A stretch of 64,000 nucleotides of DNA from Yuukianura sp. NJ FZ-2021 (lineage: Eukaryota), in assembly GCA_046563655.1 (NCBI GenBank), contig CM102285.1, positions 12,896,001 to 12,960,000 of the forward strand, written 5' to 3'. The notes under the pieces are model-generated. The model was given only the letters and a program-made list of their open reading frames with translations. It was not told where the DNA came from and ran no database searches. The position numbers and the translations under genes were made by a program. Shown one piece after another: positions 14,801 through 20,420 of the stretch; position 1 is the first letter of the stretch; each line of letters starts with the position of its first letter.

Positions 14801-17800
14801 CAATTGAACAATACGGAAAGGGAAAACGTTTTTTTCTTTGTATTGTGATCATATTGCAAAGAAAATAAGACTTTTGCAAAAAATTTTCGCACTATTAGCA
14901 GTGGTGCGTGTTAGTTTTTTGTTATGTTGAAGTTTAAACTTCACTTCAAATCGTCTTACGTCTAGCATCAATTTTGTCAATCCTTTGAGAAAATTTGTAA
15001 CTCAAAGAACTTTGTGCGGTTTTGCTAAAAATGTGTGGAATGCGAATCTCATGGTTACAAAAAGTGCACTAAAGCGTAAAAAATTTCAACGCTTTGCTTC
15101 CCTATTCCACGCTTTCACTTGCTCAAGAACTTTATTTTGCACAGTACAACAAAAAAAAACACAAAGTATTATACGCATCTCCTCAAAATTTTGATGAAGT
15201 TTTTGAAATTTTGTATTGAAAATGTATATTTAGCCTTCTCGCAAATGTCAAAGTACTTTTTAAAATCTCAGGGTTAAGTGGGCTTAAATTCTACCAATCA
15301 GGAAACGCCACAGTTACTTCCTGTGTTCAAATCAATTAAGTTTATTAAGCCCTACGCATATTCGCTATGTCACGTTCATCAAATGTTAGGTTAAAAGTTA
15401 GGGCAGCCTAACCTAACAACGATAATTGAAAGTGAACGTGACAGGATTAATATGCTCAGACGTCCAAGGTCGTTTCTAACAATAGTTTTTAATGTCACTT
15501 CTAAGTCCGGTACATCGCCACCACCGTTACTTTTAACTTTAACTGCTGCCATATTTTAAGGTTAAGCTAAGTTTATGTTCAAAAGGTGCTTAGAATTAGT
15601 TTTAGAATTGCACAGGAAGGATACGCCTCAAAAATTACACCAAAGTGTCTGATATGTCTCCACACCCCTTCCTTCCTCTTACCTTTGAATCACAATTTAG
15701 GTCAGGGGTTAACCACTAAGGTCTCCTATTAAAACATTATGCTCAATTACAAACAAAACACTAATTCATTTAGCGTGAAAGTGCAAGTTAAAAGAAAAAA
15801 ATTTGCTCGTTTTGTTCTCAACACCGTATAATTTTCAATATGAGAGTTCGATTTTGATTTTTAGTTTCGTAGAAACTGTAATGGTCAAAGTAATTTCAAA
15901 ATGATCAAAAAATGAAAAAGCAAAGGTCAAGAGGCGAAAATGGTTTTCGGGTTTAATTATTTTTAATCCTTTCATTTTTTGATCTTTTCACTTTTTGACC
16001 TTTTCACTTTTTGACCAAATTGTTTTTAACCATATTACACGGAGCTGATTTTGATTTCCTGTCTTAAATTTTAGTATGTACACGAATCTACTAATTGAAA
16101 ACAAAGATTTTAAGATTTCGATTTTTGTCGCTATATTGAATTGAACTTCTATGAAATTTGCAAATTTTCATTTTTGAGTAAAAATCGTAATTTCTTCTCC
16201 TGCAAACCTAAGTAAAAAACATGATATTAAGATAAATGAGCAAGAAAATCACTCACTGTCGTTTTCCAATGTTATGTAAACAGGAATGATAAAGCAGAAG
16301 CAAAATCGTGATTCGTGACACTACTATAATGTACTTAATTGTTACTTTTCCGTGATTTCCTCATTAGATTCAGTTACGATACTTTTTTGAGCCAAAGTGT
16401 TGAAGCCAATTAACTGATTAACACCATTGAGCAGATGCAGCGCCTAATGCTTCAAAAGTGTCTAAAATTTAGCATTTCTTTGAATTTCGTAGGAAGCGGA
16501 AGAAGAAATCGGAGAAGCCTATCAAGATGAAAAAAATCAAGCAGCTCTACTCATCCACCATGACAGAGACGACGGGTCTTTGCTAATGGTAAAAATGGCA
16601 GAGCAAATTTGAACAAACATGACAAAGTTTGTCGAAATTTTGAAAAAGTAATGTCGGAAAAGCGAGTTTGTTCATTTTAGTTTTTTGTTTGTTGACATGT
16701 GCAGGACGGAATGGTTGGAACAAATCTAGTCGTGAAACCAATTCCATCCATGTTTCGTAACAAAGTCGCCAAACATCCGCATCGTGACGATGACGAAGCT
16801 TTTCTGGACGAAGAAGCTGGAGATGACTGGGTCGTTAGTAAAGGATTTCCAAATGTTAATGAATCCTTACCGTACTTAGGTCTACTCAATTCTACTAAAG
16901 GAATTCACATTATTTACCAAACGAAACACATCGATTCGCACTCTGACTATGCTCTGATGGAACCGGACCAACCATTTTTCAAGTCATCTCTGTACAAAAG
17001 TACAAGTCACAAAAACCGGACGAAACGATCCACCGGTACTAGTGGAACTGAGCGATCCTCTAGAAGAAAACGAGAAGCTCCATTTGTGATTTACCCTGAA
17101 ATACTAGTGATAGTCGACTACGACGGTTATAGACTTCATGGTGGAGACAACCTTCAAGTGAAACGGTACTTTGTATCGTTCTGGAACGGAGTCGACCTAC
17201 GATACAAAACACTCAAGGGACCTAAAGTTCGGATTTCAATTGCTGGAATCATAATTTCAAGGGTAAATTTTTGGAAAAACAGCCCAAAACTGGCCAAATT
17301 TACCAAAATTAGCCGAATTTCACCAAAATTGGACAAAATTTTCAAATGAAATGTTTTTCAAAAATTTTGAAATTGTGGTTTTTCAGGGTCGTGATGCTAC
17401 ACCGTACCTGGAGAAGAATCGTGTGGGGCGAGATGCTCTGGACTCAGCCTCAGCACTAACAGATCTTGGCAAATATTTATTTCAAGAGCGTCGCCTACCT
17501 GTTTACGACATTGCAGTTGTTGTTACTAAGTAAGTTCATTAACCCCGGTGGGGTTTTGGGGGTTACGGGGTCACAAGGTCACGAAATTTCAAAGTGTCGA
17601 TGGTCAATTTCTTAAAATGTGTCAAGTTTCAAAAATTTTGACCAAATCTATAACAATTTTGACCTATCACGTTTAGGTATGATATGTGTCGCAGAAGAGA
17701 TGGTGGAAGCTGTAGTCGTGGTACAGCGGGTATGTTTAAAAAAGATTTTCAAAGTTTCAAAAAAGAGGTGACCAATCCTAAACGCAGCGTCGCTTTGTTC

Positions 17801-20420
17801 AATTCACCCATGAAAAATTAACGCTGTACAGAAAATCTTAATCAAAATTTGCGTAGCCTAAGCAAAATCTCACATTTCTGACTCGCGCAAAATCATAAAA
17901 TGGGAAAATTTCAAATGTAATGCTAAACTTTTTAAAACATTGGACTGAAACTAGGTCAAGGTCAAAGGTCAAGGTAGACTACAAGTTGAATGTTCAACTT
18001 CGTGTGTTTTACGTTTCAGATCGACTCTTTCACTGTCATTTTGTATTTCAGATTAGACATGTGTCGAAGGCAGTTTGCCAACGACGTTTGCAATCGTGGT
18101 ACAGCAGGTAAACTTTCACCTGACTTTCCTTTTTTCCCATAACTTGCACGACCTTGAAAAATTGTTGACTGCACGAAGTTTGAATTTGTGGAGATGCACT
18201 TTGTAGACTGTCCTTACCGTAGTTGCACTGCAATACACAATCTTGACATTGCGGACCAGTTACCGTTCGTAAAAAGTTTTGTCGTAGGTAAAAAACCACA
18301 CTTCTGGCAAGTTTAGAAAATAGACGCCTGTACCTGTAGAGAAAGTTTACGGTAAAATTCAACTTTGCTTTCATAGCTTGGGTGCTTAAAGGTTGGAATG
18401 AGCTTGTAATTTTTTAACTTAATTAACTTCTATTAACTTGTATGATTTGTACATATCTAAATCCCAATGCTTCGTAACTTAAATTTTGAAAAGTTCAAAC
18501 TAAATTGACCTCGATTGACCTCACTCTCTAGGATTTGCTTACGTTGGAGGGGCATGCGTTGTAAATAAAAGACTGGAAAAAGTCAATTCTGTCGCAATCG
18601 TTGAAGATACTGGAGGATTTTCTGGGATTATCGTAGCTGCTCATGAAGTCGGGCATTTGTAAGTTGAAGAATATGAAATTTCAAAACATGTTTTGAATTC
18701 GTGAACTTTTTTTTTGGAAATTGAAATTTCTAGACTTGGATGTGTCCATGACGGTTCTCCAGCCCCAAGTTACCTAGGTGGACCTGGAGCACAAAAATGT
18801 CGGTGGGAAGATGGCTACATCATGAGCGATTTGCGTCACACGGAGAGAGGCTTCCAATGGTCTCCTTGTTCAATATCCCAATTCAACCACTTCCTAAAGT
18901 AAAATTTTGAAAAAGAAACATTGAAAATTTAAAATTTTATGAGTTGTTTTTGAAATTGATGTAGCGGTGACACTGCCACTTGTTTGTACAACTCTCCCCA
19001 TGAAGACAGTTCCCTTCCAAGAGTCCTTCCAGGAAAACTGCTGAGCCTGGACGCTCAATGCCGCAAGGACAGAGGCACTTCAGCATGTTTCGTAAGTTGA
19101 AAATTCAACTTTAGAAAACTTCAAAAGCCAGTTTTTTTTTCCAAGAATTTGAAAAACTGCGTATGTTTTCAAAATTTTACAGAAAGACGACAGAGTATGC
19201 GCCCAACTGTTTTGTTTTGACGCAACGTCGGGGTATTGCGTCGCTTACCGTCCAGCGGCTGAAGGCTCCCCTTGCGGAGATGGCCACGTAAGGTCAAAAA
19301 GCTAAAAGGTCAAAGGTCACGTACCAAAACTTTGCTAACGAAATTGTATGTGTTTTGGAAAACTTTGTAGCAACATTGTGTGAGCGGTCGATGTGTTGTA
19401 GAACATGAAAATATTATTCCTGACTACTCTCATATTACGCCATCAGTAGTACGAGGGGACTCTTCATCAGCAGCCAAATCCTCAACATTTACTTTTCCCT
19501 CTTCAACGTGAGTTTGTTCAACAAAAAATTGCAGACTTCTTCCATTGTGGAAGATGACGCAGGGGTCAGTGACCTCTGACCTTACGCGCTTTTTTGTTGC
19601 ATGTGCATGCGGGGAGAAACGAATTTAGCTGAAATTGATTTTTGAAAATTTAAAATTTGCATGTTTTTTGAAAATTGCATGAGTTGCATCTGAATGTAGG
19701 ACATCCGTCGTATTACGTCACAACGAAATTCTTAAATGTTAAGGTTACAATATTAAATTAACTTTAATTTGCTTTTACTATTACTCAACAACTAACTTAT
19801 GGTTTCTGGAGCTAACTGATGGCGGTGACATGACCTCTGACAACAAACTCAACGGTCACAATGTTAGTATCTTCATTGTAAAAATTGTAAAAACGAAATA
19901 CAGATCCGCCATGACAGTGGCTCCACCAATCAACGTGACCCACCACCAGACTCCGCCACCAGGAGCCGCCGGACATACCAAATCTTTCGAAGATTTTGCT
20001 TCTTCCACCACCCATGCAACAATTGTTGCAAAAAGCACAACTACTGTCAAACTACGAAAACCGTCAAGCAGTTAGCCTAATTTAAAAAAAAATGAAATTT
20101 CACCTAGCCTAATTTAAAAAAAACAACAAACATATTACGTCGTCACTTTTCACCCAAAAGCGCTTCCACTTTTAAGTTCCTCCAATTAAAGCATTGTAAA
20201 TTCCGTTCTAATTCTGTTTTAAAATTTTGAAATTTCAGAATCTAATTCCCATAAACTCGAAAGTGGTGTGGTGACCTGTGGAAATCGAGTGGATCGAATC
20301 GGTGGTGGTTTGACATGTGCCGAGTTCCTGACTCGATTTGGCTACAAATACTGCTCTTCCCACTATATTCAACAAAACTGTTGTTTGGCCCATAAAACCG
20401 TTTGTACTACTCTCTTCTGA
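11819..20420 (+). CDS. sona: Secreted reprolysin/ADAMTS-like zinc metalloprotease (Sol narae-like)
   Basis: Exons: 11819-12037 (hydrophobic signal-like stretch), 12128-12191, 13616-13815, 16493-16588, 16705-17261, 17387-17529, [17677-17729 or 18052-18107], 18531-18658, 18733-18898, 18965-19091, 19182-19287, 19371-19507, 19904-20070, 20239-20420. It has a prodomain with RTKR and RRKR furin sites, the zinc motif HEVGHLLGCVH, a Met-turn (YIMS), a Cys-rich domain, an S/T linker and a C-terminal 6-Cys module. The sona assignment is from recalled similarity. Confidence 0.85.
15870..16043. repeat. Dispersed fold-back (MITE-like) repeat, copy 1, intronic
   Basis: The left arm ATGGTCAAA..TGATCAAAAAATGAAAA..GGTCAA is the inverse of the right arm TTTCATTTTTTGATC..TTTTGACC. 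It ends TTTGACCAAATTGTTTTTAACCATATTACACGG, which is shared with 46591-46770. Confidence 0.7.

Follow-up and report, generated by a model that had tools for sequence, protein, structure and literature searches.

Tandem exons in the catalytic domain of a sona-type metalloprotease gene from a springtail-like hexapod are very probably mutually exclusive

A gene for a sona (sol narae)-type ADAMTS-like metalloprotease lies on the plus strand of the stretch of DNA analyzed here, a window of 64,000 nt from Yuukianura sp. NJ FZ-2021 (contig CM102285.1 of assembly GCA_046563655.1, positions 12,896,001 to 12,960,000); all coordinates below are those of the window. As traced by local tblastn with a Folsomia protein, the gene spans approximately 13615 to 20408. 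Two similar exons, A and B, stand in tandem in the region encoding the catalytic domain of this M12B/ADAMTS-like protease, as the original prediction had placed them. We are highly confident that A and B are mutually exclusive duplicated exons, that one of them would be spliced into each mRNA, and that the counterpart of the S2′ loop of human ADAMTS proteases would thereby be swapped. The exons of the gene are the following; L002, cited where it supports an assignment, is a related genomic locus.

13615..13817 (ends approximate), plus strand: propeptide exon of the sona-like gene, from tblastn of residues 106-195 of Folsomia P0121
16699..17262 (5′ end approximate), plus strand: large exon that runs from the end of the propeptide, with its basic RRKREA stretch, into the catalytic domain, from the open frame 16696-17349 and tblastn of residues 203-370
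17387..17529, plus strand: constitutive exon 5′ of the pair, ending ...YDIAVVVTK with two bases of the Lys codon, from the sequence and the comparison of related loci
17677..17729, plus strand: exon A, 53 nt, YDMCRRRDGGSCSRGTA(G), A-type loop, from the sequence; same peptide in L002
18052..18107, plus strand: exon B, 56 nt, LDMCRRQFANDVCNRGTA(G), B-type loop, from the sequence; same peptide in L002
18532..18658, plus strand: constitutive exon 3′ of the pair, GFAYVGGAC...SVAIVED...HEVGH zinc site, from the sequence and Pfam Reprolysin_3
18720..19523 (ends unrefined), plus strand: further exons with the remainder of the catalytic domain and the disintegrin-like and ADAMTS cysteine-rich parts, from tblastn and Pfam ADAMTS_CR_2
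20253..20408 (approximate), plus strand: C-terminal exon, from tblastn of residues 708-759, 47% identity

Judged by its matches, the window gene is a sona-type ADAMTS-like metalloprotease of a springtail-like hexapod. With the open frame 16696-17349 as query, 509 proteins were obtained with E up to 0.001. Among those listed, the closest are springtail proteins with 68-73% identity (Allacma fusca, Folsomia candida, Orchesella cincta and JGI sequences), followed by insect proteins with 42-59% named ‘ADAMTS ... like’, ‘venom metalloproteinase 3’ or ‘sol narae metalloprotease’; the proteins named ‘sol narae’ among the best listed matches share 46-59% identity with the query. The domain assignments agree. 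Pfam Reprolysin_3 is recognized on the single exon 18532-18658 (23.2 bits, cutoff 22.4) and ADAMTS_CR_2 on a single exon at 19153-19305 (28.7 bits, cutoff 27.3), and full-length relatives of the window protein carry PF01421 and PF17771. The propeptide exon, with a GTTAGT donor after ...CCACAG, gives a weak match to Pep_M12B_propep that falls below the cutoff (E 0.019). The HExxHxxGxxH zinc motif is present, with HEVGHL ending exon 18532-18658 and LGCVHDG in the next open frame, and this block is identical in the orthologues. No Rfam family reaches its gathering score between 12000 and 21000.

The upstream constitutive exon ends ...GTTGTTACTAA at 17529, where the donor is GTAAGT. Exon A has its acceptor AG at 17675-76 and the donor GTATGT, and exon B has its acceptor AG at 18050-51 and the donor GTAAAC. 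The downstream exon, which encodes GFAYVGGACVVNKRLEKVNSVAIVEDTGGFSGIIVAAHEVGH, follows an acceptor AG at 18530-31 and therefore starts at 18532, not at 18531 as had been predicted; it ends at 18658, with a donor GT at 18659-60. In both alternative exons the first base completes the Lys codon (AA+G or AA+A) and the last base is the first of a Gly codon, so that in context the loop peptides read K-YDMCRRRDGGSCSRGTA-G for A and K-LDMCRRQFANDVCNRGTA-G for B. The AG/GT ends, equal phases, coordinates and peptides are thus those that had been given for two paralogous exons of 53 and 56 nt. A and B adjoin at a spacing of 322 nt without an exon between them, and the introns around the pair measure 147, 322 and 424 nt. 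According to a repeat finder, their DNA matches in register over 22 nt at 86% and 23 nt at 74% identity, and by our own count the peptides share 11 identical residues in 19 aligned columns. No third copy was found in 13000-21000, either by motif or by repeats. The original prediction had also described A as basic and Gly-rich and B as longer and more acidic; this is only mildly true in the window, where by our count the net charges are +2 and +1, and the contrast between A and B is much larger in insects (insect A is YDMCRRRKGGRCTKGTAG).

When the exons were joined in silico, both the upstream-A-downstream and the upstream-B-downstream combinations remained open through HEVGH. By contrast, joining A to B introduces a stop at the second codon of exon B, and skipping both introduces one 12 codons past the junction, which agrees with the earlier claim that exactly one exon must be used. 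The reason is that both lengths are 2 mod 3. The frame alone suffices for exclusivity. We propose that an old tandem exon duplication gave rise to A and B, and that each mRNA would take one of them, yielding two proteins that would differ only in the 18-19-residue Cys...Cys loop between ...AVVVTK and GFAYVGG. At the least, the reading frame would enforce exclusivity, and mRNAs with both exons or neither would presumably be removed by nonsense-mediated decay.

Other mechanisms of exclusion were also considered. Steric exclusion between A and B was rejected, since a 322-nt intron is too long for it, given the minimal intron size. Incompatibility of the U12 type was rejected as well, because all donors are of the GTA/GTG type, i.e., U2-type. 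A search for competing RNA pairings revealed only weak, AT-rich inverted repeats in 17530-18531. A crude duplex test on nine intron pairs from three loci, each compared with 60 mononucleotide shuffles, gave z values from -1.6 to +1.1, and no conserved intron word was found among the three loci, so that by this weak test a docking/selector mechanism is unsupported. Clusters of mutually exclusive exons are known from arthropod Dscam, Mhc and 14-3-3 zeta (PMC3923563). Like those clusters, the window pair consists of tandem duplicated exons of similar length and the same frame, with conserved splice sites, that swap a structural element. Unlike them, it has two exons only, its exclusivity can be explained by frame alone, and no conserved intronic docking/selector pairing was found (absolute z below 1.7 against shuffles in the crude test).

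Two repeated words in these introns are recorded here as observations. An AGGTCA(A) tandem repeat of 3-4 copies at 17953-17975, about 77 nt 5′ of exon B, is partly complementary to two segments, one at 17659-17673, just 5′ of exon A, and the other at 18505-18516. As a word, this repeat is conserved neither in L002 nor in a second related locus, L003. The AT-rich word TTTCAAAAATTTTGA occurs twice in the introns of the gene (17356-17370 and 17627-17641) and is complementary to 18481-18500, just 5′ of the downstream exon, although this may be chance in AT-rich introns.

Related loci were taken from one metagenome scan, which returned seven loci, of which L001, L002 and L003 were used. L001 is an intronless transcript-like contig of B type; L002 and L003 are genomic, and each has A and then B. 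This order is thus found in all three genomic loci (the window, L002 and L003), and in each of them all four splice sites are AG/GT. In L002 both peptides are identical to those of the window, and in L003 they are YDMCRRRDGQRCSRGTAG for A and LDMCRRQFDKDVCNRGTAG for B. Between the window and L002, exon A differs at 8 of 53 nt and exon B at 10 of 56 nt, and every one of these differences is synonymous (8/8 and 10/10). Relative to L003, the differences that fall in synonymous and in non-synonymous codons number 13 and 3 in exon A, and 5 and 3 in exon B. The introns, in contrast, differ in length between the three loci (147/322/424, 154/200/513 and 526/499/595 nt) and have only scattered 10-mers in common, none at a corresponding position and no sequence that can be aligned. 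Synonymous-only changes in exon A, set against introns that cannot be aligned, are our chief reason for regarding this exon as functional in the lineage of the window. Taken with the orthologues described below, the pattern of substitution indicates that both exons are under purifying selection across hexapods. The decay or absence of exon A in relatives, which had been named, together with a lack of reads, as a finding that would speak against the pair, is not seen; exon A is kept in L002, L003, Folsomia and insects.

The loops of orthologues were typed by reading the 75 residues before HExGH in 120 listed matches to 16696-17349. The original prediction had proposed to look for both exons in other arthropods, and both loop types were found there: 60 of these matches have only the A-type loop, 53 only the B-type, 2 have both in tandem, and 5 have neither, the last being truncated or gapped models. 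The A-type peptide is YDMCRRRKGGRCTKGTA in 59 of its 62 occurrences, the two tandem models included. The B-type loop follows the pattern LDMCRR-x-F/Y-x-x-D/E-x-CNRGTA, in 23 variants. A second search, centered on a dipteran sona protein, likewise listed 120 matches, among them proteins of many Drosophila species, of tephritids and of Glossina, Musca and Anopheles; 51 have the A-type loop, always with one peptide, and 69 have the B-type. Dipteran ‘sona’ proteins thus show the same two loop types, D. melanogaster not being among those listed. Over both searches, 111 of the 240 listed hexapod and crustacean matches are A-type and 122 are B-type, though some may recur in both. Since the same A-then-B pair is found in two independent related contigs, and either peptide in hundreds of orthologues, a chance resemblance between the two exons is excluded.

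Annotated isoforms show the same exchange. Pairs of isoforms from the same species were aligned for Tribolium castaneum (X1/X2), Tenebrio molitor (X1/X2), Colias croceus (X1/X2), Folsomia candida (X1/X2), Eurosta solidaginis ‘sona’ (X1/X2), Drosophila santomea (X3/X4) and D. suzukii (X5/X6). All seven pairs differ at 8-9 columns, every one of them inside the loop and nowhere else. The Logan contigs P0067 and P0068 were rejected as an eighth pair, as their 12 differing columns are spread over the protein. Among insect-like, intronless, transcript-like contigs, P0019, P0068, P0070 and P0099 are A-type and P0017, P0067, P0098 and P0115 are B-type. Some A- and B-type proteins nearly fill their contigs (862 aa on 3702 nt and 863 aa on 3706 nt). 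Because such contigs barely exceed the coding sequence, they are likely to be spliced transcripts, and both mRNA forms would therefore exist in insect-like organisms.

The RefSeq A and B isoforms of genes named sona or ‘ADAMTS-like’ in Folsomia, Tribolium, Eurosta and many Drosophila species have the two loop types of the window at the same position and with the same phases, as implied by a length difference of 0-1 residue. The window B peptide is identical to the B loop of Folsomia, Orchesella and Allacma, and the window A peptide is closest to the A loops of Folsomia, Allacma and L003; in springtails, 4 of the 18 residues of the A loop depart from the invariant form of insects. The window pair is therefore the orthologue of an event already annotated in many insects and in the springtail Folsomia candida, and is not new as a feature. 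In a literature search under sol narae and CG9850, we found no paper that describes the sona exon pair as mutually exclusive. The orthologues also have further isoforms of varying total length (656-760 aa in Folsomia, 655-1371 aa in Eurosta), and sona-type genes thus vary at the C-terminal end as well.

The age of the duplication can be gauged from more distant relatives. The ostracod Darwinula has an A-type loop, YDLCRRRVSGRCTKGTAG, and the ostracod Notodromas, Artemia and Homarus have B-type loops. A search with a Tetranychus orthologue listed 120 matches, of which the first 54 were read; the other 66 are insect proteins, most of them already present in the first search. Among the 54, 52 are chelicerate-type sequences with one intermediate loop, LDMC-R/K-R/K/H...GRC-N/S-RGT-A/T-G, from mites, ticks, spiders, a scorpion, horseshoe crabs, a sea spider and further contigs, and the remaining two are an insect-like B-type protein and a distant paralogue. 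The Tyr-starting A-type loop does not occur among these 54 sequences, which are annotated proteins only and include no chelicerate DNA. The chelicerate loop mixes the two types, in that its start and length are as in B and its GGR as in A. Since A- and B-type loops are found across hexapods and crustaceans, and a single intermediate type in chelicerates, these loop sequences indicate that the duplication is old and common at least to ostracods and hexapods. The simplest reading, on a sample of annotated proteins that holds no myriapod, would be that one ancestral exon became two once chelicerates had split off, but before ostracods and hexapods last shared an ancestor.

Two further observations were made on the chelicerate sequences. 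Spiders have two paralogous sona-like genes, P0424-P0427 versus P0450-P0454, with loops …RRRFPGGRCNRGTAG or …RKQFxGGRCSRGTAG, and their loop diversity seems to stem from gene duplication, not exon duplication. P0412, a protein from a 48-kb contig labeled Rhagoletis zephyria (a fly), has a chelicerate-type loop, and is 89% identical to the Tetranychus query over the searched region, much as are the mite proteins listed next to it; a fly assembly that includes mite DNA is the probable explanation.

To place the loop in the protease, we turned to solved relatives. With the Folsomia A isoform as query these are ADAMTS-4 (E 1.1e-19), ADAMTS-5, ADAMTS-1 and ADAMTS-13; a profile built from the B alignment matches ADAMTS-5, ADAMTS-1 and ADAMTS-4, and does not match ADAMTS-13 at the threshold used. 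The exon aligns to positions 105-119 of the ADAMTS4 chain of 2RJP, where the cysteine is the first Cys of 322CGVSTCDT329. In the profile alignments to ADAMTS5 and ADAMTS1 both Cys residues align, while in the single-sequence alignment to ADAMTS4 the second Cys is two residues off. The segment had been described as a Cys...Cys loop adjoining the active site, and this description is upheld by the family profile, in which it aligns Cys-to-Cys with 371CGHHSCDT378 of ADAMTS5. According to passages of a review, the motif 322CGVSTCDT329 in ADAMTS4, or 371CGHHSCDT378 in ADAMTS5, characterizes the S2′ pocket, and when ADAMTS4 is uninhibited its S2′ loop moves over to the active site, where Asp328 coordinates zinc (PMC9620172).

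The S2′ loop of human ADAMTS4 and ADAMTS5 (PDB 2RJP, 3B2Z and 2RJQ) stands in the same sequence order as that of the window, i.e., after ...TRxDxC and before GxAxVGxxC. The window loop nevertheless has 7 (A) or 8 (B) residues between the Cys residues, as opposed to 4 in the human proteins, and two extra residues before the conserved Thr. Also, the passages of the review that concern the human loop do not report that it is swapped by splicing (PMC9620172). We consider the assignment right in substance: from these alignments, the exon appears to swap the counterpart of the ADAMTS4/5 S2′ loop. Given this correspondence, exon choice would most likely change the prime-side substrate pocket or the gating of the active site.

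Several observations limit the reading of mutually exclusive exons that swap an S2′ loop. In place of the Asp that chelates zinc in ADAMTS4, the aligned residue is Asn in B, and in A it is Ser (springtails) or Thr (insects). AlphaFold models were made for both Folsomia isoforms, that of A from an alignment with 40 A-type rows and that of B from one with 40 B-type or chelicerate rows, and have a mean predicted local distance difference test (pLDDT) score of 54.1 and 55.2, respectively; in the catalytic domain of both isoforms the values are mostly below 50-60, with 10-residue blocks at about 26-63. In springtails, all six transcript-like sequences are B-type (P0001, P0002, P0006, P0128, P0129 and L001), as are the six springtail matches among the 120 listed, whose loop is that of window exon B. 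The springtail A form is backed by genomic conservation and by two models. One is the RefSeq model of Folsomia isoform X2 (P0123, 760 aa), with the A-type loop YDMCRRRGDGGRCSRGTAG, whereas X1 (P0121, 760 aa) has a B-type loop; the other is the Allacma model P0131, which fuses an A loop (YDMCRRREGGRCSRGTA) with part of B.

These springtail transcripts are what would be expected if exon A were a relic here, with B effectively constitutive and A unused or a pseudo-exon at the level of noise. The acceptors of A are also slightly less rich in pyrimidines than those of B: by our own count over the 13 nt before AG, the three loci have 9, 9 and 7 pyrimidines for A versus 10, 11 and 11 for B, a weak hint that A may be the minor form. 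An unused exon would drift, however, and exon A has an open frame, both Cys residues and, in all three loci, its splice sites; its 8 substitutions relative to L002 are all synonymous, amid introns with no alignable sequence. Moreover, Folsomia has an annotated A isoform, and the A peptide is invariant in 51/51 dipteran and 59/62 other A-type sequences. We therefore regard a relic as very improbable. In springtails, B would probably be the bulk or default form, and A a minor, restricted or regulated one.

The converse alternative is that both exons enter the same mRNA by the use of internal alternative splice sites that leave the frame intact, yielding a tandem double loop. Three deposited models do contain both peptides, namely Allacma P0131, Ephemera P0012 and Exocentrus P0058, the last two with a short linker between the loops that resembles a read-through intron. 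None of the three is a RefSeq isoform model; two read through the intron (linkers MLLSAPDVHQQ and NLK), and in the third some residues are missing where the loops meet, as is typical of ab initio mis-prediction, so that all three are probably mis-predictions at the exon pair. Furthermore, A joined to B at the canonical sites meets a stop at once, and there is no transcript-like contig with both. This alternative is hence exceedingly unlikely, and mutually exclusive use of A and B remains the reading that we adopt.

Whether such exclusive use has consequences for the enzyme is a separate matter. A and B may provide Sona with two S2′ loops of distinct biology, an ancient specificity switch that would predate the split of ostracods and hexapods and is absent from annotated chelicerate proteins. 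The A loop that is invariant in insects, with RRRKGGR between its Cys residues, might then act as a basic element for docking or gating that alters either the substrates that are cut or the auto-inhibition of the active site. We put this forward tentatively, at a little under an even chance. Alternatively, the two exons could be used in mutual exclusion and the isoforms be functionally equivalent, as a neutral, frozen duplication with the same specificity. Drosophila provides an argument for such equivalence, as the PA form alone rescued the lethality of sona mutants (PMC4989167). This rescue was partial, however, with 23-36% normal adults (PMC4989167). Also, residues specific to each type have been kept apart for a very long time: A begins with Tyr and B with Leu, A has RRKGGR where B has a Q/S/T-aromatic-x-N/G-D/E stretch, and the second Cys is followed by T/S-K in A and by N-R in B. 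Were the copies neutral and redundant, some lineages should have lost one of them. We thus consider functional equivalence unlikely.

The identity of the PA form bears directly on this question. Sona-PA is one of five isoforms in FlyBase, and the Drosophila work has focused on it; the catalytic mutant is E475A, and the sona13 allele alters Trp344 (PMC4989167). Among the listed proteins, those of five members of the melanogaster subgroup (simulans, sechellia, mauritiana, santomea and yakuba) with the same N-terminus have Trp at 344, and their catalytic Glu is residue 475 in the B-type isoforms and residue 474 in the A-type isoforms; the numbering of D. erecta is shifted by 2. Because Glu475 and Trp344 match the numbering of the B isoforms of these sister species, D. 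melanogaster not being among the rows, Sona-PA is probably B-type. A rescue by PA would then be a rescue by the B form.

Beyond the 3′ end of the sona-type gene, long open frames of neighboring genes are found at 20775-21746 (minus strand), 24098-25025 (minus), 27836-28784 (minus) and 30791-31402 (plus); their lengths are 323 aa, two of 155 aa, 143 and 77 aa, and 203 aa.

The window itself is ordinary, in that it holds the orthologue of an annotated event. What is added beyond the database annotation is the purifying selection on both exons across hexapods, the sharing of the duplication with ostracods as against the single intermediate loop of 52 of 54 chelicerate-type sequences, and the probable use of the B form in the Drosophila work. 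Moderate interest lies in a possible enzymatic difference between the loops. In Drosophila, Sona is an essential ADAMTS and acts on Wingless signaling, and the published work appears to have used the B form only; if the two loops do have distinct biology, an effect of the A loop would have been missed. Exclusive exons that swap a loop at the substrate pocket of a protease would be a compact route to two enzymes from one gene.

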